The notes under the pieces: model-generated | Database searches by the model: none | Told to the model about the DNA's origin: nothing | What the model saw: the letters and a program-made list of their open reading frames with translations, nothing else | Virus record (IMG/VR): IMGVR_UViG_2563366854_000002 | Span: 1-25,932 of that record | Origin: a virus | Taxonomy: Duplodnaviria > Heunggongvirae > Uroviricota > Caudoviricetes | DNA length: 25,932 nucleotides | Strand: one strand, 5' to 3' | In this document: piece after piece, positions 1 through 24,998 of the stretch | How positions within the stretch are numbered: position 1 is the first letter of the stretch | Layout: the number at the start of each line of letters is the position of its first letter | Program-made: the position numbers and the translations under genes

Positions 1-1053
1 TTACGGGGTAATGCCAACCGCTGCCGCCACTTTGTCGCCACTTGGCAGCGTTGCCAGAGGATTGAAACGGAGCGCCGTTTCCAGATGATCCGGTGCCAGA
101 TGTGCGTAACGCATAGTCATTTTTATATCGTGGTGTCCGAGAATTTTTTGTAAGGCCAGAATGTTTCCACCCGACATCATGAAGTGCGCCGCAAACGTAT
201 GGCGCAGAACGTGTGTGAGTTGACCGCGAGGGAGCACGATAGACGTTTTTTCCATCACGGATAAAAATTGAAAATAGCAGTCTGTGAAGAAATTGAACCC
301 ATCAAGCGCCATGATCTCTTCGTAAAGCTCTTTACTGATAGGGATGCTTCTGTTTTTCTTCCCCTTCGTTCTGACAAAGGTAATTCGGTATTTGGTCACC
401 TGTGAGCGGGTAAGATTTACGGCTTCACGCCAGCGTGCGCCTGTGCTTAAGCATATCTTAACTACCAGTGCCAGAATTGGGTCCTGACGTTTGCAATCAG
501 CCAGCAATTCAACAATCTGCTCATGGGTAAGCCATGCCATCTCTTTTTCTGCGATGGTGAATTTTCGCATGTTCTCCAGTGGGTTCGGATACGACCATTC
601 GCCCAGACGGGATAGTTCGCTAAAAACACTACTTAGATAGCTTTGCTCCAGGTTAATGGTGACCGGGCTTGCTCCTTTCTTCCATTTCTCGCTGAAGTAG
701 ATCTCGCCTGTCAGGCGTTTATCTCGATAGTGGGCAAACATTTTAGAGGTGAGATCGGTTGCAAGAGGATTGCCCAGAGCGTCAACCATCAACAGCAATT
801 TGTCATAGACATGCTGCCCAGCTGTCAGAGATTTACCATGTAGTTTGAACCATAGCTCAACCACGTCTTTCAGTGTTCGACGATCCACTGATTCACCCAG
901 CCAGGGCTTTGCTTCGGTTTCTTCCATCGTGTGGCGCTCAAAAGCCAGTGCTTCGCCTTTGGTGACGAATTGTTTACGCACACGACGCCCACTTCGTCCG
1001 GCGGGGTAACATTCGCAAAGCCATTTCCCAGTGGTGAGTTTTCGTACTGCCAT
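1..1053 (-). CDS. int: Phage tyrosine integrase (P2 Int-like), 350 aa from ATG at 1051-1053
   Basis: ORF translation has the C-terminal tyrosine-recombinase region (ARWREA...HVLRHTFAAHFMMSGGNILALQKILGHHDIKMTMRYAHL); start chosen at MAVRKLTTGKW with GGAGGG 8 nt upstream; the longer 1..1209 ORF lacks an SD. Confidence 0.9.
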   Translation of the reverse strand: MAVRKLTTGKWLCECYPAGRSGRRVRKQFVTKGEALAFERHTMEETEAKPWLGESVDRRTLKDVVELWFKLHGKSLTAGQHVYDKLLLMVDALGNPLATDLTSKMFAHYRDKRLTGEIYFSEKWKKGASPVTINLEQSYLSSVFSELSRLGEWSYPNPLENMRKFTIAEKEMAWLTHEQIVELLADCKRQDPILALVVKICLSTGARWREAVNLTRSQVTKYRITFVRTKGKKNRSIPISKELYEEIMALDGFNFFTDCYFQFLSVMEKTSIVLPRGQLTHVLRHTFAAHFMMSGGNILALQKILGHHDIKMTMRYAHLAPDHLETALRFNPLATLPSGDKVAAAVGITP

Positions 1054-1241
1054 AAAAAATGCCCTCCAGTAGAGAGCATTTTCACTGTATGTATAACCAG
1101 TGTCAATGTATGAAATCCTACGACCATACATCTCACTGAAGCCATAATTAAGTTGGCTATTCTTTTTGCTATGTGAGCATGTAACTTTTGCGGTTAACCT
1201 GCGGCTCATTTTTATTTTAGACGCAGATATAAAAGCAAAAG

Positions 1242-1433
1242 TTATCGTGAGTTTTTAGTACAGATTTTTTTGGATTTACTAATAGTTCCATCATTGCAAA
1301 CGAATTTGCCATCTGAGGTACAGTGAGAAACACCTCCCTTTTTCCCTGAGCAGGGATAATTTCTAGCATAGGTAGTTAGTGGGTTTAATAACAAAGAACA
1401 TGACAAAACCACAAAAAATACCTTACCAAGCAT
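1242..1433 (-). CDS. Small secreted Cys-rich peptide (63 aa; predicted signal peptide, 4 Cys in the ~40-aa mature part), unknown function
   Basis: Strong SD GGGAGG 5 nt upstream of ATG, placed at the CI stop codon; hydrophobic N-terminus [23 protein letters not shown]; AT-rich (20 G+C in the 60 nt of line 1261). Confidence 0.6.
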
Positions 1434-1448
1434 AGTTTCCTCCCGGTA

Positions 1449-2018
1449 CTATTTAACATACTTGACTGTTAAACTTATAATTTTACCAATTATTTCAATG
1501 TCTTCTATCTTGCATTCGAAGGCTCTGTTTCCACCCTCGACGAAGATTCTTCCACCGGGTAAACGAGTAATGTCACGGATCGTTATTTCGCCATCAATAC
1601 TTATTACCCATTTACCATCACGTATATCATCAAATTCTTTATCACAAATAAATTCAGAATTGTTATCTGTGATGACAAAAGGTTTTTTAAACGTAGAGGG
1701 TAGAAATCCCTTATCAAAAATATAAAAACCGTCTTTCTGCAATGCTCCATCAGACAATAAATATTTTTCTACTTCTATAGTATTTGTATTTGCTGATGCT
1801 TGCTTTGAACCATGCCCTGTTGTTAGCCAATTAAGCGAGGTGCCCGTTTCAAGGGCGCACTGGATTACCCAATCTGCTGGAAAAATATCACGCATATAGC
1901 GCGTTGCCATGGTGCTCTTAGAAACACCTAAATGATCACATAGAGCCTGACGGGTACCGAACCCATATGCTTCAACTAAACGTTCTATGGCTTTCTTACC
2001 GCCGCTATTGAAATCCAC
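1449..2018 (-). CDS. cI: Phage CI-type repressor (HTH plus C-terminal domain), 186 CI-like; start uncertain (GTG at 2018 with GGAGGA upstream, or GTG at 2105)
   Basis: Translation contains AIERLVEAYGFGTRQALCDHLGVSKSTMATRYMRD (HTH region) and lies divergent to apl and upstream of int, as in 186-like phages; the 2018 start gives ~189 aa. Confidence 0.75.
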   Translation of the reverse strand: MDFNSGGKKAIERLVEAYGFGTRQALCDHLGVSKSTMATRYMRDIFPADWVIQCALETGTSLNWLTTGHGSKQASANTNTIEVEKYLLSDGALQKDGFYIFDKGFLPSTFKKPFVITDNNSEFICDKEFDDIRDGKWVISIDGEITIRDITRLPGGRIFVEGGNRAFECKIEDIEIIGKIISLTVKYVK

Positions 2019-2163
2019 AAGTCCTCCAAAGAAATCCAAAATTCGTTGACAGATTCCAAAAGCGATCTTAAAGTTGAACCAGAAGTGTTCTTTTGGAGCC
2101 TTCACTACTAATCACGACAAACAACGGCTCGCCACAAGCCATATCTAGAAGGAATGTTGCCTT
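2019..2163. promoter_or_regulatory. Lysis-lysogeny switch region between cI and apl (promoters/operators not resolved)
   Basis: Position between divergently oriented repressor and apl/cox-like genes; no specific -10/-35 confidently assigned. Confidence 0.35.
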
Positions 2164-2367
2164 ATGACACCTAACATTTCAATTACTCTGAATACACCAC
2201 ATGTCACAATCGAACGTTATAGCGAACTGACTGGCCTTTCTATTGATACGATTAACGACATGTTGGCTGATGGCCGACTACCTCGTCATCGTCTTCGTAA
2301 AGACAAAAAACGTGAAAAGGTAATGATTAACCTGGCTGCTCTGACTGTTGATGCTTTGTCTGCTTAA
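2164..2367 (+). CDS. apl: Apl/Cox-like excisionase and switch regulator (67 aa, HTH)
   Basis: ATG with AGGAA upstream; small HTH protein ([24 protein letters not shown]) as first gene of the rightward early operon, opposite cI. Confidence 0.75.
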
Positions 2368-2431
2368 TAGACGTCTATTTTCGCAATAAGACGCTGAGTT
2401 CGATTTTGCGATAAGTTCGGAGTTGAAAACC

Positions 2432-2941
2432 ATGTTTGATTACCAAGTTTCCAAACATCCACATTTTGATGAAGCCTGTCGTGCATTCGCACTGCGCCAC
2501 AATCTGGTGCAACTGGCAGAACGTGCGGGCATGAATGTGCAGATTCTGCGGAACAAGCTGAACCCAGCTCAACCTCATTTATTAACCGCACCAGAAATCT
2601 GGCTGCTTACCGATCTGACTGAAGATTCAACGTTGGTAGATGGTTTTCTGGCACAGATTCATTGTCTGCCATGTGTACCGATTAATGAGGTAGCAAAAGA
2701 GAAACTGCCGCATTACGTCATGAGCGCAACTGCAGAGATCGGGCGTGTTGCAGCAGGTGCGGTATCTGGTGATGTAAAAACTAGTGCCGGTCGTCGTGAT
2801 GCTATCAGCAGCATTAACTCTGTAACACGACTGATGGCGCTGGCTGCTGTTTCATTGCAGGCCCGTTTACAGGCTAATCCTGCGATGGCGAGTGCAGTTG
2901 ATACCGTGACTGGCCTCGGTGCTTCATTCGGTTTGCTGTGA
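2432..2941 (+). CDS. cII: Phage 186-type CII regulatory protein (169 aa)
   Basis: Translation [45 protein letters not shown]... matches my recollection of the 186 CII family; ATG at 2432 with GGAG upstream (the track start at 2423 is TTG). Confidence 0.85.
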
Positions 2942-4232: not shown

Positions 4233-5086
4233 GCACCATCCTGAAATGGGCGGGAAATAAAACCGCCATTATGTCCGAACTGAAAAAGCATCTTCCTGCT
4301 GGCCCGCGACTGGTTGAACCTTTCGCGGGTTCCTGTGCAGTGATGATGGAGACGGAGTACCCCAGCTATCTTGTTGCGGATATTAATCCTGATTTAATCA
4401 ACCTCTATAAAAAGGTTGCTGCTGATTGTGAATCGTTTATATCTCGCGCCAGAGTTTTATTTGAGATCGCAAACAGGGGGGGGGCTTATTACAACATAAG
4501 GCAGGAGTTTAATTACTCAACTGAAATTACTGATTTCATGAAAGCGGTATATTTCCTGTATCTCAATCGTCACGGTTACCGTGGTTTATGTCGCTATAAC
4601 AAGAGCGGGCATTTCAACATTCCCTACGGTAATTATAAAAATCCGTATTTCCCTGAAAAAGAAATTCGCGCATTTGCAGAAAAAGCCCAGCGAGCAACGT
4701 TTATCTGCGCCAGCTTTGATGAAACGCTGGCGATGTTGAAGGCGGGGGATGTGGTGTATTGCGATCCGCCGTATGACGGTACGTTTTCCGGCTATCACAC
4801 TGATGGTTTCACTGAAGATGACCAGTATCACCTGGCATCCGTTCTTGAACATCGGTCATCAGAAGGACATCCGGTCATTGTTTCTAACAGTGATACATCC
4901 CTGATCCGTTCGCTGTATCGCAATTTTACTCACCACTATATCAAGGTAAAACGCAGCATCGGTGTGGCAGCTGGCGAGGGTAAATCAGCAACAGAAATCA
5001 TTGCTGTTTCCGGGCCGCGCTGCTGGGTGGGATTTGATTATTCGCGTGGCGTGGATAGTTCTGCCGTGTACGGAGTACGTGCATGA
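4229..5086 (+). CDS. dam: DNA N6-adenine methyltransferase, Dam/D12 class (285 aa)
   Basis: Motif [10 protein letters not shown] and motif IV DPPY ([10 protein letters not shown]) seen in the translation; ATG at 4229 with GGAGG upstream; ATGA overlap with gene A at 5083-5086. Confidence 0.9.
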
Positions 5087-7497
5087 GCCATGCCGATATG
5101 AACAACTGCTGCGGCTTTAACGAGGCTGCCGCAGCGTTCTCATGGAACAGCCCGAAAAAGGCCATTAACCCTTATCTGGACCCGGCGGAAGTTGCGCCGG
5201 TTTCTGCGCTTTCAAACCTGATCGCTCTGTACGCTGCCGATAACGAACAGGAACACCTGCGCCGCGAGGCACTGAGTGATCAGGTCTGGGAGCGTTATTT
5301 CTTTAATGAATCCCGTGATCCTGTCCAGCGCGAAATGGAGCAGGATAAGCTCATTAGTCGGGCAAAGCTGGCGCATGAGCAGCAGCGTTTTAATCCAGAT
5401 ATGGTCATTCTGGCGGACGTCAATGCCCAGCCTTCCCATATCAGCAAGCCGCTGATGCAACGTATTGAATACTTCAGCAGCCTGGGCAGGCCAAAGGCTT
5501 ATTCCCGCTATTTGCGTGAGACGATTAAGCCATGTTTGGAGCGACTGGAGCATGTACGCGACAGCCAGCTATCTGCATCTTTTCGTTTTATGGCAAGCCA
5601 TGTAGGGCTGGACGGCCTGCTGATTCTGCCTGAAATGAGTCAGGATCAGGTGAAACGCCTGTCTACTCTTGTCGCTGCGCATATGAGCATGTGTCTTGAT
5701 GCCGCTTGTGGTGATTTGTACGCCACCGATGATGTTAAGCCAGAAGAAATCCGCAAGACATGGGAAAAGGTGGCAGCAGAAACCCTGCGACTGGATGTTA
5801 TCCCGCCTGCGTTTGAGCAACTTCGTCGGAAAAGAAACCGCCGTAAACCCGTGCCCTATGAACTCATTCCGGGTTCGCTGGCGCGTATGTTGTGCGCCGA
5901 TTGGTGGTACCGGAAATTATGGAAGATGCGTTGCGAATGGCGGGAAGAGCAGTTGCGTGCTGTTTGCCTGGTCAGCAAAAAAGCATCTCCCTATGTCAGC
6001 TATGAAGCCGTGATGCATAAACGTGAGCAGCGCCGTAAGTCGCTGGAGTTTTTCCGTTCTCATGAACTGGTGAACGAAGACGGCGACACGCTGGACATGG
6101 AGGATGTGGTAAACGCCAGCAGCAGCAACCCGGCGCATCGCCGCAATGAGATGATGGCCTGTGTTAAAGGTCTGGAGCTTATCGCAGAAATGCGCAGTGA
6201 CTGTGCCGTTTTCTACACTATCACCTGTCCGTCGCGTTTCCATTCCACGCTCAATAACGGCAGACCAAACCCGACCTGGACAAACGCGACGGTAAGACAA
6301 AGCAGCGATTATCTGGTCGGCATGTTTGCTGCATTTCGTAAGGCTATGCACAAAGCCGGGTTGCGCTGGTATGGCGTGCGGGTGGCTGAACCGCATCATG
6401 ACGGCACAGTTCACTGGCACCTGTTGTGTTTCATGCGCAAAAAAGACCGCCGCGCCATTACTGCATTGTTGCGTAAGTTTGCCATCCGTGAAGACCGCGA
6501 GGAGCTGGGCAATAACACGGGGCCACGCTTTAAGTCTGAGCTGATAAACCCGCGCAAAGGTACGCCAACAAGCTACATCGCGAAATACATCAGTAAGAAC
6601 ATTGACGGGCGTGGTCTGGCTGGCGAGATCAGCAAGGAAACGGGTAAATCCCTGCGTGATAACGCTGAATACGTTAATGCCTGGGCGTCTCTGCATCGTG
6701 TTCAGCAATTCCGCTTCTTTGGTATTCCGGGGCGTCAGGCTTACCGTGAACTTCGCTTGCTGGCTGGTCAGGCGGCAAGGCAACAGGGTGACAAAAAAGC
6801 AGGTGCGCCGGTACTGGATAACCCGCGTCTTGATGCCATTCTGGCTGCTGCTGATGCTGGTTGTTTTGCCACCTACATCATGAAGCAGGGCGGCGTACTG
6901 GTTCCCCGTAAATATCACCTCATCAGAACCGCTTATGAAATCAACGAAGAGCCGACCGCCTATGGCGATCACGGCATTCGTATTTATGGCATCTGGTCAC
7001 CCATTGCAGAGGGCAAGATCTGCACTCATGCAGTGAAGTGGAAAATGGTTCGTAAAGCCGTTGACGTTCAGGAGGCGGCAGCCGACCAGGGCGCTTGCGC
7101 CCCTTGGACTCGTGGCAATAACTGTCCCCTTGCTGAAAATTTGAACCAACAGGATAAAGATAAATCAGCTGATGGGGACACCAGAACGGACATTACCCGC
7201 ATGGATGACAAGGAATTGCACGATTACCTGCACAGTATGAGCAAAAAAGAGCGCCGGGAACTGGCAGCAAGGTTACGCCTAGTTAAGCTGAAACGGCGTA
7301 AAGACTACAAACAGCGAATTACAGATCATCAGCGACAGCAGCTCGTCTATGAGCTGAAGTCCAGAGGATTTGATGGCAGCGAGAAAGAGGTCGATTTACT
7401 CCTACGTGGTGGCAGTATTCCGTCAGGAGCAGGCCTGCGTATCTTCTATCGGAACCAGCGTTTGCAGGAAGATGATAAGTGGCGGAACCTGTATTAA
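5083..7497 (+). CDS. A: Phage replication initiation protein A (rolling-circle endonuclease, 804 aa)
   Basis: Translation has an HxH-type motif ([10 protein letters not shown]) and paired tyrosines ([11 protein letters not shown]) typical of P2 gpA-type initiators; position after the early operon. Confidence 0.9.
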
Positions 7498-8176: not shown

Positions 8177-8860
8177 CTATGATTGAAGGGTGACTTTTTT
8201 TAACGTATCAAAAACGATTTTCGTAAACTCATTCTCATTTCTAACATCAATATAAGCAAGGCCGCTATTGGTGATCTTGAGCTTACCGGAATATTCTAAT
8301 GAATTAACAGAGCAAACAAGCCTGTCAATTCTTATTTTTTTACCCTCTAATTCTTCTTTATAATACTTCCTAAGATCATTGCTGCCAATTATTTGCATTT
8401 TAGCTGTGGCGTAATCAGAAACTCTAACCCTTGAAATATCAAGTTGTGTTAAATTGATATTTACACTTGAAGATATTTCATTAAGCCAGTCTATAGGGTT
8501 TATGTCAATTTCTTCCAAACTAACACCTAAGCCAAGATTTTTTACCAAAGCCTGCGAAAAAGGCTTTAAAGTTCTGGGTGGGTTAGTAATCTGCATTACA
8601 GGAAGAGAGTCTAAAGCCACGCTAAAATTTGTGGTGCGATATTCGATTCTTTCAACGGTAGTTTCGCTTCCGTCAAAGCTTAATATTTTATCATGATAAA
8701 CAATACGCTCGACAAAGCGACCATTTGCAAAATCATGGCGTATTTTATCAAAAATGAACCCTTTCCCTTTATCCTCTGTAAAAGAATCAAGAGAAAGACG
8801 TCTAACGGCTGTTTCAAACTCAAGCCGTATGTTTAACTTAAGCCATTTAACCTTTTTCAT
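8177..8860 (-). CDS. Cargo operon gene 3: hypothetical protein (227 aa), no family recognised
   Basis: ATG at 8858-8860 with GAGGTGA upstream; overlaps gene 2 by 14 nt; AT-rich. Confidence 0.75.
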   Translation of the reverse strand: MKKVKWLKLNIRLEFETAVRRLSLDSFTEDKGKGFIFDKIRHDFANGRFVERIVYHDKILSFDGSETTVERIEYRTTNFSVALDSLPVMQITNPPRTLKPFSQALVKNLGLGVSLEEIDINPIDWLNEISSSVNINLTQLDISRVRVSDYATAKMQIIGSNDLRKYYKEELEGKKIRIDRLVCSVNSLEYSGKLKITNSGLAYIDVRNENEFTKIVFDTLKKVTLQS

Positions 8861-9926
8861 CTTCGTTCACCTCTGATCCTATTATTATATTATAGGCATT
8901 TTCAGCGGCGGACTCAATTAATTCACTAATATGTTTTTTCTCTTGTGCCGTTGCCGCGCGAATGGTTACATTGAAACCGTCTTCTTTTTGATTGTTTATA
9001 CCTTTAATTTGATAGGCAAAGTCACAGCATTTTTCTGAGTCTTTGAAAAATGCTTCGACGTTGATTCTGTCTCCAATTCCACTTGTCGGCTTTGAAGACC
9101 ATGCAATACGCCCGATATAATAACCTTTCTCATGTAGTTGAGAAAATATAGCTGAACTATTTACCCCTTCACCATTAAGGACGGCTTTCTTAACAAATCC
9201 GGTATCAATAGTTTCTTCCTTGTCTTCATCCTCACTAGCATCAGTACTGCGATTTAATTCGACTTTTGTTACGTCATCAGTCTCATAACCGCGTAGACCA
9301 TTCATTAATTCCTGAAAAAACTGACTTCGCAATGTAGGATCAGTTATTGCTAGTAATGATATTTCGAAGCGCTCGATAGGTTCGGACTTGATTTTAGATA
9401 GCTCGTTTTGCAAGCTCTCAATAACTTTTTTTGCCTCGGGGTTTTGAGGCATACGTACTTCAACTTTGTCAGCTCCAGGGCGAAGTTCTATTATAACATT
9501 CCGCTTGTCGATCTGACGTAATGCAGTTTTAGACAGGTCTATTTCTTCATATTTGTATTCTACTGTAAGCGAGCCATCTTTTTTAGCTACAATATTCAGG
9601 CTTTGACCTTTACTAGGGGAGCATGTTTTTTTTAGTGCTTCAGCAGCACTTTTTAATTCGGCCTGATTTGTTGAGGTTTGGAAGCTCACACTAGTAGTGC
9701 TTTCCCTTGGGTCATATGTTTTGACCAGTTTTTTTATGTGTTCTAATTCATTAAATCCGTGAGGAAGTTTGGATATTTCCTCGATTAGTATTTCCTTGTC
9801 GAGTTCTGGTGATAAAAACACACCTCGATTCAACAATAATTCATGCAACTTTGCAGCGGTTATCCTTTTATGATGTAATGCATCATAAATATTTTTATCA
9901 GTTGCGAAATATAGTTTTTTAGCCAT
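8847..9926 (-). CDS. Cargo operon gene 2: hypothetical protein (359 aa) with an acidic linker between two regions, no family recognised
   Basis: ATG at 9924-9926 with GGAG upstream; TAATG stop/start overlap with gene 1; AT-rich. Confidence 0.75.
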   Translation of the reverse strand: MAKKLYFATDKNIYDALHHKRITAAKLHELLLNRGVFLSPELDKEILIEEISKLPHGFNELEHIKKLVKTYDPRESTTSVSFQTSTNQAELKSAAEALKKTCSPSKGQSLNIVAKKDGSLTVEYKYEEIDLSKTALRQIDKRNVIIELRPGADKVEVRMPQNPEAKKVIESLQNELSKIKSEPIERFEISLLAITDPTLRSQFFQELMNGLRGYETDDVTKVELNRSTDASEDEDKEETIDTGFVKKAVLNGEGVNSSAIFSQLHEKGYYIGRIAWSSKPTSGIGDRINVEAFFKDSEKCCDFAYQIKGINNQKEDGFNVTIRAATAQEKKHISELIESAAENAYNIIIGSEVNEDEKG

Positions 9927-10927
9927 TATCGTTGCTCCATGCCGATTTGTTCAAGATTATATTCAACAACAATTTTGTCTGTCTTGTCGAAGTCAATTTT
10001 AAGAAAAAGTCTTTCATCCTCGCCTAAGAGCCAGTCTGTGCTGTATTTCTTTTTCGCTCTTTCAAAATGATGAATGGCATTTTCATTTGGGTGAATGTGA
10101 CAATGGCGTAATACGATTGGTTTACCTTCGGTTAATATCTGATAAGTTGATAACATATCAAAGAAGTAAACGAATTCGTCTACTGAATCCCCCGGTTGAT
10201 TGTAATAAACAACATATCCCTCAGGGTTTTTATCCCTGAGCCAACTGAAAGCCTCATGCTTTATTATAATGTATGGTGATGTTAATAATTCAATTGTTGC
10301 AGGTGTTGTCTGATTAATAGGGTGCTTTATTCTTGTTAGGGAAAGATCTGGATAATAATATGTGAACTTATCAGGTTGAGGAAGTTTGCCTGAACCAATT
10401 AACTTAGTTATGTCAGAAGATATGTTTATCAAATCTGATATTTTATAAGGGTCAAGCAAATGTAGTTTGATGTTTGGAGGGCAATTTATAGATGAGTGAT
10501 CTAATTTTTTTGTAATATTCTCATAGAAGTCTTTATCATATAAATTATCATGGTTATATAAGAATAATAACCCTCTTACGTTATAACCTAAAGAATCATC
10601 ATGAACATATTTCAATCGCCATTCTTCACTGACATTTGCACACTCGGTAGCTAAAGCAAGCGATGTTAAAGCTCCCTCGACTATTTTTTTCCCAATAGTA
10701 CCTTCTGCATAGCTTTTGAGGTCTGTGTTGAGATAGACCATTTCCTCCTCATATGGATCTATGTAGAAAAATACAACATCGCTTGGATGTGTTTTCTTGG
10801 AATGAGCCTCTTGGCAACAATCCCAATTCATGTCCGCTCTAGCGGCACGATCCCATTTGAACACTGAGAAAATATCATCAGAAATCTTACCCGCGACTCG
10901 TTGTATAGCCGAAGTCTCTCCACCCAT
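9926..10927 (-). CDS. Cargo operon gene 1: hypothetical protein (333 aa), no family recognised; has an R-x4-H spacing (RHCHIH) near the C-terminus
   Basis: ATG at 10925-10927 with AAGGAG 7 nt upstream; first gene of a three-gene minus-strand operon; AT-rich. Confidence 0.75.
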   Translation of the reverse strand: MGGETSAIQRVAGKISDDIFSVFKWDRAARADMNWDCCQEAHSKKTHPSDVVFFYIDPYEEEMVYLNTDLKSYAEGTIGKKIVEGALTSLALATECANVSEEWRLKYVHDDSLGYNVRGLLFLYNHDNLYDKDFYENITKKLDHSSINCPPNIKLHLLDPYKISDLINISSDITKLIGSGKLPQPDKFTYYYPDLSLTRIKHPINQTTPATIELLTSPYIIIKHEAFSWLRDKNPEGYVVYYNQPGDSVDEFVYFFDMLSTYQILTEGKPIVLRHCHIHPNENAIHHFERAKKKYSTDWLLGEDERLFLKIDFDKTDKIVVEYNLEQIGMEQR

Positions 10928-11487: not shown

Positions 11488-12345
11488 ATGTTTAGTGATA
11501 AGCAAAAGCAACAAATAGGTAATAATTCGTATGCAATTCAAGCTGGAAATAATGTAAATGTTTCAGGGATGTCGTTTTCCGAGGTTAGAGAACTATTCAA
11601 CATTCTCTTCGAAAATCAGTTTCCAAAATTGAAAGATGTTGCTTATGCTGCAGCTCAAGAGAATGCAAAAGATTTTGAAGAGCGTGTCGTTTCGGATTTA
11701 ACAAAAAACGTTGATAGATTGATTATTGATAAATTTTGCGATCCGGACGTTCAGGCTACATTGACTGAGGCATTAAAGTCATCAGCCAGGAAGGGAAAGA
11801 AAGCTAATATGGATGTGCTTTCTCAGTTGTTAGTTGAACGAGTCTCCAATAACAATGACGATTTTAGAGATATAGTTTTAACGGAGGCAGTTACCGTCGT
11901 TCCCAAGTTAACACAGCAACAAATATCACTTATAACGATAGTTTTTCTTCTCAAGAATGTTGAGATCAAAGACCCTGTTAATGGTGTTCGATTGGATTTG
12001 TTGGAGCACAATTTTAGAAACTTTGAATCAATGTATACTAATGGGTTTAATTTGTCTCAAGCCCAGATATATCACATTCAATATGCAGGGGCTTGTTCAT
12101 GGAATACTTTTTTAGGGATGGATGTTGAAGACTATTTTATGAGTAAATATCCGACTGATATAAAAGATAAGAGTGCATATATTTCAAATCTTAAGTTAGT
12201 TGCCCCTCATGTGTCTGCATTTTTAGAAAAATTTTCAAAGAGCAACTATCAAGGAATTGAATTAACAAGTGTAGGGCAAGCAATTGCTCTGGCTGTTTTT
12301 TCAAGATACGTAGGAAGATTGGATTATAATATTTGGTTAAAGTAG
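11488..12345 (+). CDS. Hypothetical protein (285 aa), no family recognised; N-terminal GNNSYAIQAGNN motif resembles the C-terminus of the upstream small protein
   Basis: ATG with AAGGAGG 6 nt upstream; 9 nt downstream of the 81-aa gene; AT-rich. Confidence 0.75.
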   Translation: MFSDKQKQQIGNNSYAIQAGNNVNVSGMSFSEVRELFNILFENQFPKLKDVAYAAAQENAKDFEERVVSDLTKNVDRLIIDKFCDPDVQATLTEALKSSARKGKKANMDVLSQLLVERVSNNNDDFRDIVLTEAVTVVPKLTQQQISLITIVFLLKNVEIKDPVNGVRLDLLEHNFRNFESMYTNGFNLSQAQIYHIQYAGACSWNTFLGMDVEDYFMSKYPTDIKDKSAYISNLKLVAPHVSAFLEKFSKSNYQGIELTSVGQAIALAVFSRYVGRLDYNIWLK

Positions 12346-12370
12346 GGCATTATTTGCCCTACTTTATTAT
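12341..12370. terminator. Hairpin (agtagggc-attattt-gccctact) plus ttattat, a bidirectional terminator between the 285-aa gene and portal Q
   Basis: Read directly; overlaps the stop codon of the 285-aa gene and lies 3' of the convergent Q gene. Confidence 0.5.
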
Positions 12371-13398
12371 AATTCATATGGTTGGAAAGAAATTATTTCA
12401 TCACTCAACCATTCATTAATTTCTTTAATTCGCTTTTGCAGCGGTATCAATTCGTTACGGACAAACACCTTACTCGCCTTTTCCACATCCCCAAATCCCC
12501 CAACATTACTCGGCATAATCCCCATCATCTGCGGCGGAACGCGGTGTGCAGCCATCATGTCGTCTCGGCTCACGTTCTTAATGTTCAGAAACTCATCCTT
12601 TGCCGCTACCTCTGACAGCGGGATTATCTGAATCCCGTCCTTTTTGCCGTTGGGTGAATACATAAACAGGTTGCGGAAGTTGCCCGGTCCTTTAGCGCTT
12701 TTCATGGCCTGGCGGATGTTGTTCACGTCCTCCTGGTTCTGCGCGGCGTCGGTCATATACATGATGAACCCTGCATGACTGCCATTGATGTAGTATTTAC
12801 GCCGGAACAGCGTAGCGGACTCGTTCAGCAAGGCGGACGGAATGGCGGACAGATATTCCGGCAGGCCGTAAATTTCCTGGTTCAGGTCCGGCTCCATCAG
12901 GTGAAAGATACTGCCTTTAGTGAACTCGTAGGGCTGCGTGGTTAGACCGTATTGCACAAACCAGTAGGTGTCTAAGTCGATCCCGCGGCGGGTGTATTTC
13001 GCCAGCGATGGCTCCAGCGACAGAATGCCGCCGAGCCGGTTCGTTCGTTTCTCCAGATAAGCGTTACCAAACACCAAATAGTCCTGCACAAAGCGGCTGA
13101 ATGCCTGCTGGCTCAGTAATGGATGTGGGATAAATGTACTGGTCAGAATGTTGCGTTTGACGGCAATCGGTGAGCTGTGATGTACGGCGGCGCGATAGGT
13201 GCGAGCCAGCCCATCAAAACTGACCGGCGGTTCATACCATCTGTCCATCTGTACGCATTCCACATAGTCCAGCAGCTCGCGGCGGTCCAGTACCGGGATC
13301 GGATCGCCAAAGCTGAAAGCCTCGGCACTTACGCCTGTGTTTTTCGGTGCCGTAGCTTCTGTTGGCGTTGTGCTGGTTAAGGCTTCGGGTTCACTCAT
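12367..13398 (-). CDS. Q: Phage portal protein (P2 gpQ-like), 343 aa from ATG at 13396-13398
   Basis: Size and position next to the terminase large subunit; TGATG overlap with the P stop; the track start at 13401 is TTG. Confidence 0.9.
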   Translation of the reverse strand: MSEPEALTSTTPTEATAPKNTGVSAEAFSFGDPIPVLDRRELLDYVECVQMDRWYEPPVSFDGLARTYRAAVHHSSPIAVKRNILTSTFIPHPLLSQQAFSRFVQDYLVFGNAYLEKRTNRLGGILSLEPSLAKYTRRGIDLDTYWFVQYGLTTQPYEFTKGSIFHLMEPDLNQEIYGLPEYLSAIPSALLNESATLFRRKYYINGSHAGFIMYMTDAAQNQEDVNNIRQAMKSAKGPGNFRNLFMYSPNGKKDGIQIIPLSEVAAKDEFLNIKNVSRDDMMAAHRVPPQMMGIMPSNVGGFGDVEKASKVFVRNELIPLQKRIKEINEWLSDEIISFQPYEL

Positions 13399-15164
13399 CA
13401 AAAAATCTCCACAATATTGCTGGTATTGGCGGATTCGCCCTGCAGCGGTTCGTTAAACAGTGCGTGCATTGTTGCCCAGGCCAGATCGGCGTGGCTGGCT
13501 TCTTCGCTGCGGCTGGCTTCATAGGTCGGGCGGTTGCCGCTGGCGGTGGTTGCGCGCCGGATTGCCATAAATGACTGCGCTATGTCGGTGTGTCCGGCGT
13601 CAAACTCCAGACGGCGGTGACTGATAATGTCGTAGGCTTTGAGTACTAGGGCATTTTTAACATTGGGGTTGTAGACAAACTCCCGGACGGCAGGAAAGAA
13701 CGCTTTCACGTTCTCATAAACCCCGTGACCGACGCCTGTCGAGTCGATGCCGATATAGGTCACGTTGTACTGCTCGGTCAGTTTTTTGATTGCATCAGCC
13801 TGGGCGCGGAAGTCCATCCCGCGCCACTGGTGACGCTCAAGAATGCGAAACTTACCGCCTGGCACGGCTGGCGGTGCCACCACCACGCATCCGGCACTGT
13901 CGCCGTTCTGCGTACCTTTTGCCGGGTCATAACCGATCCACACTTCGCGCCAGCCAAACGGGCGCAGGGCCAGAGCATGAAAGTCGGTCCAGACTTCCCA
14001 ACTGTCCACCATGCACGCCTGCAGCTCGCTGAGCGGAAACACGGACGCGAGATCGTCCACAAACTCGCACATCAGCAGGTTCTGGTATTCGTCCGGGCTG
14101 TACTCCATGCGCAACTGGTCAAGGTCGAACAGGTTGCAGCCGCCGCGCACCGCATCTTCCACGGTGACTATCTGGCGGTATTGCCCGTCTGCGCACAGCA
14201 GGCCGGGGGCCAGATTGCTGTGGGACAGGTCGATGTCCACCTTATCGGCTTTGTTGCGCCCACGGTTGAACAGTGCACCGGACCAGAACGGATAAGCACT
14301 GTGTGTCAGGCTGGATGGCGTGGAAAAATAGGTTTGTCGCCATTTCTTGTGAATAGCCATACCAGAAGCCACTTTGCGCAGCTCCTGGAATTTCGGTATC
14401 CAGAAATATTCATCCAGATACAGATTGCCGTGGTAACTCTGGGCCGTGCGGGCATTGGTGCCGAGGAAATACAGTGTGGCCCCGTTGGGAAGCACCATCG
14501 GATCGCCTTTCAGCTCCACCTCCACTTCTTTGGCAAAGTCGATGATGTACTGTTTGAAAACGTGGGCCTGTGCCTTACTGGCAGAAAGGAAAATCTGGTT
14601 ACGTCTGGTTAGCAGGGCGTCAATCAGGGCTTCACGGGCAAAATAGAAGGTCGCGCCGATCTGGCGTGACTTCAGCAGGTTGCGGATGCGGTTGGTTTTT
14701 CCGGCTTCCCACCAGTGGCGCTGGTAGTTGAACATGGAGGAATGGAAGATTTCTTCTAGCTTCTCAATCTGTTCATCGGTGAAGACATTTTTTTCCGGCT
14801 GACGGCGCGGGCCTTTGTTGCGGTTGGCGACGTTAGGGTTTAAGTCGGCTTCGTTGCCGCCATTGTTAAACTTGCCGATCCGCGCGTGGCGCTCAGACTG
14901 GCGCGCCAGCAGGTCAATCTCTTTGAAATCTTTCCCTTCTTTGTGCTCCTTCATAATGAGCTGGCAGTAGCGTGCGGCGGTGGTGAGCTGCATCTGATCC
15001 AGCGGCCCATAGTCACCCCACTTGTCGCGTTTTTTCCAGCTGTGAACGGTTGCAACTTTCTCGCCCAGCATTTCAGCAATGCGGGCTACGCGGTATCCCT
15101 GAAAGTACAGCAGCATGGCCTGCCGACGGGGATCGAGATCTGCGGGTGTCAGTGTGGTGTTCAT
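13398..15164 (-). CDS. P: Terminase large (ATPase) subunit, P2 gpP-like (588 aa)
   Basis: Size, position between portal and scaffold genes, and P2 synteny. Confidence 0.9.
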   Translation of the reverse strand: MNTTLTPADLDPRRQAMLLYFQGYRVARIAEMLGEKVATVHSWKKRDKWGDYGPLDQMQLTTAARYCQLIMKEHKEGKDFKEIDLLARQSERHARIGKFNNGGNEADLNPNVANRNKGPRRQPEKNVFTDEQIEKLEEIFHSSMFNYQRHWWEAGKTNRIRNLLKSRQIGATFYFAREALIDALLTRRNQIFLSASKAQAHVFKQYIIDFAKEVEVELKGDPMVLPNGATLYFLGTNARTAQSYHGNLYLDEYFWIPKFQELRKVASGMAIHKKWRQTYFSTPSSLTHSAYPFWSGALFNRGRNKADKVDIDLSHSNLAPGLLCADGQYRQIVTVEDAVRGGCNLFDLDQLRMEYSPDEYQNLLMCEFVDDLASVFPLSELQACMVDSWEVWTDFHALALRPFGWREVWIGYDPAKGTQNGDSAGCVVVAPPAVPGGKFRILERHQWRGMDFRAQADAIKKLTEQYNVTYIGIDSTGVGHGVYENVKAFFPAVREFVYNPNVKNALVLKAYDIISHRRLEFDAGHTDIAQSFMAIRRATTASGNRPTYEASRSEEASHADLAWATMHALFNEPLQGESANTSNIVEIF

Positions 15165-20738: not shown

Positions 20739-21486
20739 ATTCACCATATGCCCAATGAATTGCATTTTTTTGTTCAGTCAGAATATATTTCCTAACTTTT
20801 TTAGAATAGTGAATGGTCAGTATAAAACCCAAAGAAATCCATAATAGAATAAATATGGTTGTTGGGGCAAAGGAATAGATAAAGAATTTGTCTTTAACGA
20901 AATTCTTGACTTCTTCATCAATGTAAGCATTCCCTTCATCAGTGGTTAGTAGTTTACAAAGAATTTCTTTATGTTCGATAGTTAATGATTTGTACTTCTC
21001 TGTACTGGCAGAGGATGACTCTTCGCAATCATCCTTTGATATTTCCCAATCAGGAGTGGTTAATATTGTAGCTGCAGTCGCCAGTTTTTTTGACATATAA
21101 AATGATTCACCGGATTTTATCCAATAAAGCAATGTGCTATTTGGTGGGGTTCTAATGGCTTGGATGAAAACTGGACCAAAAATATAAATTGCACACAAAA
21201 AAAGAAGTGAAAAGAGAACCGTGATTGATTTTTCAGCCCATGTGATAGTAGGCAGCCTTTTTAATGATATTCGTATAAGAAAAAAATTCAATATAAACGC
21301 AGGTATTCCTGATTTTTTCAAAATTACATCATGAGATTTTCTATATTTGAATAGTGCTCTTATAACTATCGTCACCAAAGTTATAACAGCTCCAATAATG
21401 GAAATCCATGCGGCAAGTGCCGCTGCCGGGGTGTTTAAAAATTCAGCATTAAATATATTAGAACTTATTGGATTCATAACACTCAT
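20680..21486 (-). CDS. Polytopic membrane protein (268 aa), unknown function, in an AT-rich insert between S and V
   Basis: ATG at 21484-21486 with AGGTGGA upstream; several hydrophobic helices; 19 G+C in the 60 nt of line 21181; opposite strand to the flanking late genes. Confidence 0.65.
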   Translation of the reverse strand: MSVMNPISSNIFNAEFLNTPAAALAAWISIIGAVITLVTIVIRALFKYRKSHDVILKKSGIPAFILNFFLIRISLKRLPTITWAEKSITVLFSLLFLCAIYIFGPVFIQAIRTPPNSTLLYWIKSGESFYMSKKLATAATILTTPDWEISKDDCEESSSASTEKYKSLTIEHKEILCKLLTTDEGNAYIDEEVKNFVKDKFFIYSFAPTTIFILLWISLGFILTIHYSKKVRKYILTEQKNAIHWAYGEFKTEGIYSIYQELERKTHH

Positions 21487-21589
21487 TTATCCACCTATTG
21501 GTTGTTTTTTATCCTTTTATCAATTTGTACCATCGATACCACAATTTGCAAGAAGTTATAAACAAGTTTTCAGCTGTCATCATATATCT

Positions 21590-22768
21590 ATGAACGCACA
21601 ACTAACCGAAATCATGCGCCTTATCACCAATCTGATCCGCATAGGTGTAGTCACCGAAGTGGACCGGGAAAACTGGCTTTGTCGGGTGAAAACGGGCGAC
21701 CTTGAAACCAACTGGATTAACTGGCTGACGCTGCGCGCGGGTATCACCACTGTGCTGGACAACCGCCTGATGGGGCTTACGCTGACGGATAACCGGGGCT
21801 TTGAAGCGGACCAGCTTGATCTGGAGCTGGACGACGCTGACGGAAAAATCGTGCTGCCGCGCCGTGGTGCGGTCATTACGCTGGCGCTGGGCTGGAAGGG
21901 GCAGCCGCTTTTCCCGAAAGGGGCATTCACGGTGGACGAGATTGAACACACTGGCGCACCGGACCGCCTGACTATCCGGGCGCGAAGCGCTGATTTTCGG
22001 GAAACGCTGAATACCCGTCGTGAAAAATCGTGGCACAAGACCACGGTCGGGGAAGTGGTGAAGGAAATAGCTGCGCGTCACAAACTGAAGATGGCACTGG
22101 GTAAAGACCTGTCGGATAAACCCGTGGAGCATATAGACCAGACTAATGAGAGTGACGGCAGTTTTTTGATGCGGCTGGCGCGCCAGTACGGTGCCATTGC
22201 ATCGGTGAAAAATGGCAATCTGTTATTCATCCGGCAGGGACAGGGCAAAAGCGCCAGCGGTAAACCACTGCCGGTGATCACTATCATACGTAAGGACGGC
22301 GACAGTCACCGCTTTACCCTGGCAGATCGCGGAGCTTACACGGGGGTAATTGCCAGCTGGTTGCATACCCGCGAACCCGCGAAGAAAGAAAGCACTACGG
22401 TGAAGCGTAAGCGCAGGACTAAGAAGCAGAAGAAAGAGCCGGAAGCGAAGCAGGGCGATTACCTGGTGGGGACGGATGAAAACGTGCTGGTACTTAATCG
22501 CACTTATGCCAACCGGAGCAACGCCGAACGAGCGGCAAAAATGCAGTGGGAACGCCTGCAACGCGGCGTTGCGTCATTCTCGCTACAACTGGCGGAAGGG
22601 CGGGCAGATCTCTACACGGAAATGCCTGTGAAGGTCAGTGGTTTTAAACAGCCGATAGATGATGCGGAATGGACTATTACCACCCTGACGCATACTGTCA
22701 GCCCGGATAACGGTTTTACGACCAGTCTGGAGCTTGAAGTGAAGATTGATGATTTCGAAATGGAATGA
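21590..22768 (+). CDS. Chimeric in-frame ORF: N-terminal ~48 aa of baseplate spike V fused to late control/tail protein D (392 aa)
   Basis: The first ~48 aa (MNAQLTEIMRLITNLIRIGVVTEVDRENWLCRVKTGDLETNWINWLTLRAG) match the gpV N-terminus pattern; the rest (LTLTDNRGFEADQLDLELDD...FTTSLELEVKIDDFEME) matches gpD; no W, J, I, H, G, F, E, T or U genes are present. Confidence 0.8.
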   Translation: MNAQLTEIMRLITNLIRIGVVTEVDRENWLCRVKTGDLETNWINWLTLRAGITTVLDNRLMGLTLTDNRGFEADQLDLELDDADGKIVLPRRGAVITLALGWKGQPLFPKGAFTVDEIEHTGAPDRLTIRARSADFRETLNTRREKSWHKTTVGEVVKEIAARHKLKMALGKDLSDKPVEHIDQTNESDGSFLMRLARQYGAIASVKNGNLLFIRQGQGKSASGKPLPVITIIRKDGDSHRFTLADRGAYTGVIASWLHTREPAKKESTTVKRKRRTKKQKKEPEAKQGDYLVGTDENVLVLNRTYANRSNAERAAKMQWERLQRGVASFSLQLAEGRADLYTEMPVKVSGFKQPIDDAEWTITTLTHTVSPDNGFTTSLELEVKIDDFEME

Positions 22769-23312: not shown

Positions 23313-24998
23313 TTATCCTAATCCTGGCCATACCATGACGATGATTGTCCCTGCCAGCGTCAGCAGGACGTTGGCGATTGCATAGGTGCCCGCATAGCCC
23401 AGCGCCGGGATGTTACTGCGAGCTGTATCACTGATGATCTCCATTGCCGGCGCGCAGGTACGTGCGCCCATCATTGCGCCGAACAACAGCGCGCGGTTCA
23501 TTCGCAATACATAAGCACCGAACAAGAAACAGATAACCACGGGCACCAGACTGACAATCAATCCGGCAATCAACATCTGACCGCCAATCGCGCCCAGGCC
23601 GTTATTAATACCGCTACCGGCGCTCAGACCAACGCCTGCCATAAACACCATCAAGCCGAACTCTTTCACCATGCTTAATGCACCCTGCGGAATGTAACCG
23701 AAGGTCGGGTGGTTAGCACGCATAAAGCCCAGCATAATTCCGGCGAATAACAACCCGGCAGCGTTCCCCATGCCGAAACTGAATGTGCTGAACTGGAAGG
23801 TGATCATCCCGATCATCAGCCCAATAACAAAGAAGGCGCAGAATGCCAGCAGGTCAGTGACCTGGCTGTGAATCGAGATAAAGCCGATGCGATCGGCGAT
23901 GGTTTTTACGCGGCGGGCATCGCCGCTGACTTGTAAAACGTCACCTTTGTTAAGCACGACGTTGTCATCTATCGGCATCTCAATCTGGCTACGAATGACG
24001 CGGTTAAGGAAGCAACCGTGATCGGTCAACTTCAGTTGTGCGAGACGTTTACCTACAGCGTTATGGTTTTTAACGACCACTTCTTCAGTGACGATACGCA
24101 TGTCGAGAAGGTCACGATCGAAAACTTCTTTACCGTTACGGAAGCTGGGATCGAGTCGGGCATGGGCGTCGGGATAGCCTACCAACGCTATTTCATCGCC
24201 CATTTGTAGCACGGCATCACCGTCTGGATTTGCCAGAATCCCGTTACGTCGAATACGTTCAATGTAGCAGCCGGTTTGTCGATAAATACCCAGTTCACGC
24301 AGATTTTTGCCGTCGGTCCAGGCCACCAGTTCCGGGCCGACGCGATAGGCGCGGATCACCGGTAAATAAACCTTACGGTTGGCATCAGTGTCCAGGCCAC
24401 GTTCGCGGGCGATTTGCTGGGCGCTGGTCTGTAAGTCCTGATGCTGCAATTTCGGCAAGTAACGCGCACCAACAATCAAACTCACCAGACCGATTAAATA
24501 GGTTAAGGCATACCCGAGGCTCAGATTATCCAGTGCCAGTGAGAGCTGCCTGCTTTCCATGCCGGAATGACGCAGTGTATCGCCAGCACCGACCAGAACC
24601 GGTGTCGACGTCATAGAGCCTGCTAACATACCGGCCGTCAGGCCAATATCCCAGCCAAACAGCTTACCTAACCCTAAGGCGATCACCAGCGCACTGCCAA
24701 CCATCACCAGTGCTAACATTAGGTAATTTTTCCCATCGCGAAAAAAAATGGAAAAAAAGTTCGGTCCGGCTTCGACCCCGACGCAGAAAATAAACAGCAT
24801 AAAGCCAAGATTAAGCGCATCGGTGTTAATGCTGAAATGTTGTTGGCCTAATAACAGCGATACGACTAAAACGCCAATGGAATTACCCAGTTGGATCGAA
24901 CCAAGTCGTAACTTTCCGAGACATAGCCCAAGCGCGAGGACCACAAATAATAACAGAATGTAATTCCCATTTAACAATTCGGCGACGTTTATATTCAC
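23313..24998 (-). CDS. ybjL: Putative transport protein YbjL (AAE-family membrane transporter with TrkA-C-like domains, 561 aa)
   Basis: Translation ([30 protein letters not shown]..., 561 aa) matches E. coli YbjL as I recall it; flanked by ybjM and grxA as in E. coli. Confidence 0.95.

Follow-up and report, generated by a model that had tools for sequence, protein, structure and literature searches.

What is made from the short open reading frame (ORF) that separates the repressor gene from the integrase gene in a P2/186-like prophage? We asked this of a 25,932-nt stretch of Caudoviricetes DNA (IMG/VR record IMGVR_UViG_2563366854_000002, positions 1 to 25,932; hereafter the window), which opens with a lysogeny block in which int, the ORF and cI lie on the minus strand and apl/cox, cII and fil on the plus strand. 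The ORF encodes 63 amino acids between an ATG start and a TAA stop. An original prediction, drawn from the letters alone, described its product as a small cysteine-rich secreted peptide, translationally coupled to the CI repressor and laid out like a lysogenic-conversion moron; it missed that the protein belongs to a known family, YdcA. We estimate a probability of about 0.6 that the ORF encodes a YdcA-family protein that is exported and co-expressed with cI in the lysogen, the figure applying to identity, export and lysogenic co-expression jointly. YdcA is a known family with no assigned function, and the prophage region is a known kind of cargo region. Discovery value is limited, since the gene is already named in RefSeq; what is new here is the synteny of cI and YdcA across genera and a link to the Legionella protein Dis2.

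The ORF is a genuine gene under strong purifying selection. Comparison with the allele in BL21 gave 11 synonymous differences and 1 non-synonymous difference. In a second prophage allele the proportion of synonymous differences was saturated (pS ~1.0), while that of non-synonymous differences (pN) was 0.027 over the core, P27 to C58, and 0.44 over the signal-peptide part. Such a slow core behind a fast leader is the pattern left by a leader that is cut off and a mature domain that is held under tight constraint. The translated product scored 115.8 bits with NCBIfam NF007463 (PRK10040.1-2; curated cutoff 93, E = 5e-34), with positions 1-58 of the 58 in the model aligned, and it also matched PHROG 6000 (E = 2e-34). 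Its close homologues in a large protein collection carry Pfam PF27300, which is named YdcA, and the identical protein in RefSeq, WP_000900883.1, is annotated as a ‘YdcA family protein’. These matches to PF27300, NF007463 and PHROG 6000 identify the predicted product as a YdcA-family pre-protein. The copy of Pfam that we searched gave merely a sub-threshold match to GULLO2, because that copy predates PF27300. The model for the K-12 type, NF007462, scored 68.5 bits against a cutoff of 118 and was thus below threshold, so the prophage protein falls into a subfamily distinct from the K-12 type. A match to the lpg1681 family (E = 0.11) was too weak for use, and an Rfam scan of 900..2500 returned chance matches to CRISPR-DR families only (E ~0.85).

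The placement of the gene was predicted correctly: it lies directly downstream of cI, and the A of its ATG is the 16th base past the cI stop. That stop, TAG, occupies 1451..1449 and is followed by a 15-nt gap, TACCGGGAGGAAACT, after which the YdcA ATG runs from 1433; on the coding strand the order is TAG, TACC, GGGAGG, AAACT, ATG. The GGGAGG Shine-Dalgarno (SD) sequence is present as described, but it begins 4 nt past the cI stop rather than overlapping it. The proposed translational coupling to cI is unproven. The gene has its own SD, and the distance from cI varies from 15 nt here to ~45 nt in Yersinia and a TAATG overlap in HP2. The fold around the SD is unremarkable (z-score -1.5, not significant), so there is no structural evidence for coupling. 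The low guanine-plus-cytosine (G+C) content that had been pointed out is real, with the count of 20/60 for 1261..1320 correct; it is not specific to this gene, since the gene as a whole has ~35% and the 3’ half of the adjoining cI 29-38%. As a separate observation, the amber stop of cI (1449..1451) and the YdcA start (1431..1433) share a reading frame, with the start five codons downstream of the stop, so that suppression or read-through at this stop would yield a CI-YREET-YdcA fusion.

The N-terminus has the organization of a type I (Sec) signal peptide, in keeping with the original prediction: the n-region holds a single Lys, the h-region is 12 residues long (mean Kyte-Doolittle hydropathy 2.86) and the c-region contains Pro. 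The cleavage site after A23, with T-Y-A at -3 to -1, was assigned by rule from this n/h/c organization. A hydrophobic h-region precedes the core in 167 of the 174 family members with a recognizable core (96%). In an alignment of 26 family sequences 16 columns are unvarying, namely the predicted -1 Ala and 15 core positions (P27, C28, S29, K32, G33, G34, C38, F44, C46, D48, G49, S52, S54, K55 and C58). The predicted mature part, 40 residues long, is basic (pI 9.7; 7 Lys and 2 Arg versus 2 Asp) and does contain the four expected cysteines, C28, C38, C46 and C58, all of them invariant, together with the family motifs PCSG.KGG and FVC.DG; the tail past the last Cys varies across the family. A fifth, C12, lies within the signal peptide. 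We considered and rejected a lipoprotein reading of the VLSC motif around it: residue 12 is outside the ~15-35 range, a lipobox-like motif occurs in only 1 of the 174 members, and this Cys is not conserved in homologues, which argues that the protein is not a lipoprotein. Some beta-proteobacterial members (P0056, P0058, P0060 and P0062) are extended at the C-terminus, and the added stretch holds a second Cys-rich motif, C.GPRGG.YC....G...Y, which does not align to the YdcA core.

‘Secreted’ should read ‘exported to the periplasm’; there are no further export genes nearby. This bears on whether the mature peptide could be a periplasmic protease inhibitor or an antimicrobial, bacteriocin-like peptide, as its small, cationic and Cys-rich character might invite. 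Searches with phmmer repeatedly gave weak matches to plant Pin-II inhibitors (E 0.07-0.8; motifs CxG.KG...DG.FVC...K.C), none of them significant. A Pin-II domain contains 8 Cys and a reactive loop flanked by Cys, whereas YdcA has four Cys, the second out of register, and no conserved loop after the last; we ruled out a Pin-II inhibitor on these two grounds. A bacteriocin would be expected to look different too, as the double-glycine leader is absent, no immunity, modification or export gene is nearby, and a Sec signal in a Gram-negative cell delivers to the periplasm only. The homologies to toxins, bacteriocins or known exclusion factors that had been proposed as a check were found neither in Pfam, PHROG, NCBIfam or PADLOC nor in a comparison with the exclusion protein Glo. 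We regard an inhibitor or bacteriocin as highly improbable.

We next consider the fold. AlphaFold2, given an alignment of family sequences other than that of HP2, modeled a leader helix and a short beta-hairpin with a predicted local distance difference test (pLDDT) score of 76 for the whole model and 86-89 for the core. When the PDB was searched by sequence, a single match was significant, Lpg0823/Dis2 of the Legionella type IV secretion machine Dot/Icm (7MUC/7MUD), with E-values of 3e-5 for the single sequence (phmmer), 1e-4 for the profile and 2e-4 for the mature peptide alone. Both lobes of Dis2 align to the YdcA core, the top two of 350,542 chains in a Foldseek search were Dis2 chains, and, independently, PF27300 is the annotation that a homologue of Dis2 has in the protein collection. 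The YdcA core thus looks like a single-lobe form of the Dis2 fold. Dis2, an accessory subunit of the machine, has been called Legionella-specific (PMC12716638). Like YdcA, it is exported and Cys-rich, and it is pinned by disulfides beside the outer membrane (PMC8486379), where it contacts DotK, DotC and DotD (PMC8486379; PMC12716638). It differs in having two tandem lobes with ten Cys in five disulfides and in being a stoichiometric part of a secretion machine, whereas YdcA has one lobe with four core Cys and, as neighbors, prophage cI and int, type IV secretion genes not being nearby. The tie suggests that a search for YdcA partners might begin with outer-membrane lipoprotein or OmpA-like complexes.

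Conservation in related prophages, on which the original prediction had made itself depend, was found in E. coli (BL21 included, where the cI-YdcA-int block is retained), Klebsiella, Enterobacter, Hafnia, Yersinia and the Haemophilus phages HP2 and S2 (Table 1). Every phage-type homologue that we looked up stands directly past a 186-type cI on the same strand, and any extra cargo is always placed between YdcA and int. In the 186-like prophages of many Enterobacterales, as in HP2/S2, the repressor is almost constantly paired with this gene; the periplasm of lysogens is therefore probably bathed in YdcA. In a Buttiauxella prophage (L024 3579..3988) we noticed a further small ORF, with a signal-peptide-like start (MIFCCLFLAGIAHA...), between cI and YdcA.

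As had been predicted, 186 and P2 have no gene at this place: cI and int overlap in 186, and in P2 only a 115-nt gap separates the repressor gene from int. Two elements at the same rcdA-ybjL site also lack YdcA, namely a sibling prophage of E. coli C2 (cI-hyp-hyp-ASCH-int) and Klebsiella phage 4LV2017 (cI-349-aa unknown-int), and a megablast search with 1000..2200 against cultured phages gave int-proximal matches only, none with this cI-YdcA segment. The moron layout is apt only in part. YdcA shares with phage morons (bor and lom of lambda, cargo of the P2 hotspots) that it is an accessory gene missing from close relatives such as 186 and P2, in a region that varies among siblings, and that it is presumably expressed from the prophage. 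It differs in that a promoter/terminator pair of its own was not detected and that its composition does not contrast with that of cI; moreover it recurs beside cI in one genus after another, which is unlike a sporadic insertion, with the variable cargo downstream.

It could still be a functionless passenger, in that the prophage would have gained a host gene by horizontal transfer and would tolerate it or leave it unexpressed. No function has been assigned to the family, Dis2 and chromosomal ydcA are both dispensable in laboratory conditions (PMC12716638; PMC7642389), and the C2 prophage and 4LV2017 do without the gene. The very strong purifying selection among prophage copies and the strong SD speak against this, as does retention of the post-cI position across at least 7 genera even though, between lineages that have the pair, cI is only ~31-35% and int 52-64% identical. 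In addition, 590 of 5426 complete E. coli genomes (~11%), BL21 derivatives among them, cover 80% or more of the 395-bp spacer that the window has between cI and int. The selection and synteny data thus contradict the passenger explanation, which we consider unlikely.

The other part of the claim is co-expression with the repressor. A promoter and terminator scan gave no sigma-70-like site and no consensus terminator between cI and the YdcA ORF on the minus strand, and no consensus terminator downstream of YdcA. Because neither signal is predicted between the two genes, co-transcription with cI is the simplest reading; the records of 186 and of Vibrio phage K139 annotate pL/PL transcripts that span cI through int. 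The 221 nt from the YdcA stop to int (1040..1260, minus strand) fold with -64 kcal/mol (z-score -5.5; 0 of 200 shuffles as stable). Part of this fold is a terminator- or attenuator-like hairpin whose 3’ arm buries the int SD, GGAGGG (1062..1067), and which could, by inference, terminate or attenuate read-through into int. The scan for consensus terminators did not list it. The 60 nt upstream of int are kept in sibling prophages with different cargo. A promoter-like site on the minus strand (TTGACA, 1106..1101; GAAAAT, 1083..1078) overlaps the 5’ arm of the same hairpin, and transcripts from it would miss that arm and leave the int SD free.

The family extends far beyond these prophages. When 1.84 billion representatives were searched with a profile, 459 clusters scored E ≤ 1e-3, and in a few of these the core is present two or three times in tandem. 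Relatives are present in 229 species-representative genomes of gamma-, beta- and alpha-proteobacteria, in 504 IMG/VR contigs and on plasmids of Acinetobacter and Rhizobium, including a 3.9-kb MOBQ plasmid, and outside Peduoviridae the family also has plain chromosomal settings. Chromosomal ydcA (57 aa) occurs in 5416 of 5426 complete E. coli genomes, and because it is near-universal, lysogens carry two paralogues. The K-12 protein (b1419) has the same plan as the prophage protein, a signal peptide followed by a four-Cys core of ~35-40 residues with the motif PCSG.KGG..HC, and 25 of 32 core residues are identical (78%). The two signal peptides are unrelated in sequence, and the K-12 gene lies at the chromosomal ydcA-rydC-cybB locus versus the lysogeny operon for the prophage copy. 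K-12 YdcA is described as a predicted periplasmic protein with a signal sequence and no assigned function (PMC11340327). Deletion of chromosomal ydcA made E. coli W sensitive to 3-hydroxypropionate, and induction of ydcA at pH 5 has been reported (PMC7642389). Little else came up in the literature on ydcA.

Several of our findings weigh against an exported protein made with the repressor for the benefit of the lysogen. Just past the YdcA stop there is a strong hairpin that may affect the transcript. Among the loci of members in other species, 71 of 80 do not adjoin a P2-like cI or int, and in Moraxella and Acinetobacter phages the family gene lies inside head-tail (structural) modules; since structural modules hold copies and most loci are away from P2-like cI or int, the family's function is not bound to lysogeny modules. 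Furthermore, the core is extremely conserved across alpha-, beta- and gamma-proteobacteria, which is atypical of fast-evolving phage exclusion proteins, and a paralogue that is near-universal in E. coli is likewise unlike them.

With these points in mind we propose the following sequence of events for an exported, co-expressed YdcA. The gene would be transcribed with cI from the lysogenic promoter, giving continuous production in lysogens. The pre-protein would be exported by Sec and cleaved after Ala23, and DsbA would oxidize the mature part, giving a mini-domain with two disulfides, which would be retained in the periplasm. There, by analogy with Dis2, it might dock on the outer membrane from the periplasmic side, or else on assemblies of outer-membrane lipoproteins or OmpA-like proteins, and the lysogen would gain an envelope phenotype. 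Of these inferred steps we are most confident of co-expression, then of export, cleavage and disulfides, then of docking, and least of the envelope phenotype. As to what that phenotype might be, we tentatively suggest a fitness role in the envelope, with an extra, constitutive paralogue of host YdcA raising tolerance of stress or permeability changes, although we would put this well below even odds.

Alternatively, YdcA may be a superinfection- or entry-exclusion factor, a periplasmic mini-protein that blocks DNA entry by phages or by conjugative type IV machines. Its model would be Glo of K139, which also lies between cI and int in a Peduoviridae lysogenic operon, is soluble and periplasmic, is made in lysogens and has a documented exclusion function (GenBank annotation; PMC3952083). 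For K139-like Vibrio phages the cI-int interval has been reported as a defence hotspot (PMC9122126), and in P2 the stretch from int to the primase accounts for 8% of the defence systems (PMC13586616). In sibling prophages the slot holds a gene for a 443-aa KAP-family NTPase, between YdcA and int, for which PADLOC gave its candidate PDC-S20 (E = 2e-171) and weak matches to PifA and QatA; segment 1142..1264 of the window is the part that is swapped for this gene in NGF1-type prophages. YdcA thus stands at the upstream border of a cargo hotspot, between cI and int, in which defence candidates are found. In addition, its only structural relative belongs to a type IV machine that translocates DNA and protein, and family members occur on small mobilizable plasmids beside a TraD-like gene and MobA. 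Yet Glo has 137 residues, is not Cys-rich and shows no homology to YdcA (BLASTP E = 0.16), and no PADLOC model matched YdcA. The core is almost invariant in distant bacteria, and since the host already has a 78%-identical paralogue, an exclusion function would pre-exist in non-lysogens of essentially every E. coli. We therefore rank envelope tolerance slightly above exclusion, because a near-invariant core and a close host paralogue are unlike typical exclusion proteins. Exclusion, slightly less probable, stays alive because of the defence-rich neighborhood and the precedent of Glo.

A broader, more speculative version, which we hold doubtful, is that YdcA-type mini-proteins are a widespread, largely mobile-element-borne periplasmic module that docks onto outer-membrane lipoprotein or OmpA-like assemblies, as Dis2 does in the Dot/Icm cap. 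The cI-linked prophage copy might then represent an unrecognized family acting in entry or superinfection exclusion at the envelope, or a mimic or competitor of host YdcA. If this docking or exclusion reading were true, it would provide the first functional handle on the orphan E. coli ydcA and on Dis2. Any phenotype of the prophage gene would give a function to a core E. coli y-gene and a common prophage gene together.

Table 1. Coordinates of the features discussed, in the window unless a sibling locus is named, and gene orders between cI and int in related elements.
Feature	Position or source	Strand	Basis and remarks
YdcA-family gene, 63 codons and TAA stop	1242..1433	-	ORF list, NF007463, PHROG 6000, RefSeq WP_000900883.1; ratio of non-synonymous to synonymous substitution rates (dN/dS) far <1
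YdcA Shine-Dalgarno sequence GGGAGG	1439..1444	-	sequence reading; 4 nt past cI stop, 5 nt ahead of ATG
Predicted type I (Sec) signal peptide, residues 1-23, cleavage after A23	1365..1433	-	n/h/c organization, invariant A at -1, rapid evolution
Predicted mature 40-aa basic core with 4 conserved Cys	1245..1364	-	alignments, pI, AlphaFold2, Dis2 match
186-type cI repressor gene	1449..2018	-	Pfam PF07022 (Phage_CI_repr) 3e-31, PF16452 (Phage_CI_C) 5e-29; RefSeq annotation
int tyrosine integrase gene, downstream end of lysogenic block	1..1053	-	Pfam Int_N and Phage_integrase; RefSeq annotation
Stable RNA hairpin from YdcA stop codon, no U-tract after it	1182..1244	-	fold of 1040..1260; within segment 1142..1264
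Terminator/attenuator-like hairpin (1056..1082) and U6 run ending at int ATG	1054..1082	-	fold and sequence
KAP NTPase genes in E. coli/Klebsiella sibling prophages	L008 1142..2473; L010 4198..5529; L183 3198..4529		PDC-S20
cI-YdcA-KAP NTPase-int	E. coli NGF1 and a second E. coli immunity type		
cI-YdcA-KAP NTPase-int	Klebsiella		
cI-YdcA-int	Enterobacter hormaechei		YdcA stop 3 nt ahead of int
cI-YdcA-347-aa unknown-int	Hafnia		
cI, ~45 nt, YdcA, then HP2-like int	three Yersinia species		
cI, unannotated 60-aa homologue, orf1, int	Haemophilus phages HP2 and S2		ATG overlaps cI stop (TAATG, 1-nt overlap)

Elsewhere in the prophage, three consecutive ORFs of 227, 359 and 333 aa at 8177..10927 (minus strand) give full-length matches to PADLOC Hp3, Hp2 and Hp1 (E = 2e-157, 3e-248 and 1e-239) and none in Pfam. 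Their site is the classic P2 hotspot, flanked by gpA (5083..7497) and by an ORF, 12367..13401, that we take to be the portal gene Q. A 285-aa ORF in the same hotspot (11488..12345, plus strand) had no Pfam or PADLOC match. The prophage seems short, at ~23 kb: not far beyond a gpD-like gene (21347..22768) comes a permease gene of the host, with Asp-Al_Ex/TrkA_C (23313..24998, minus strand). Alignment to the closest phage, Klebsiella 4LV2017, covers only 68% of the first 25 kb, and this together with the short length suggests a deletion in the tail region. In the RefSeq locus with the identical protein rcdA adjoins int, and the permease gene looks like ybjL, which would place the element between rcdA and ybjL.

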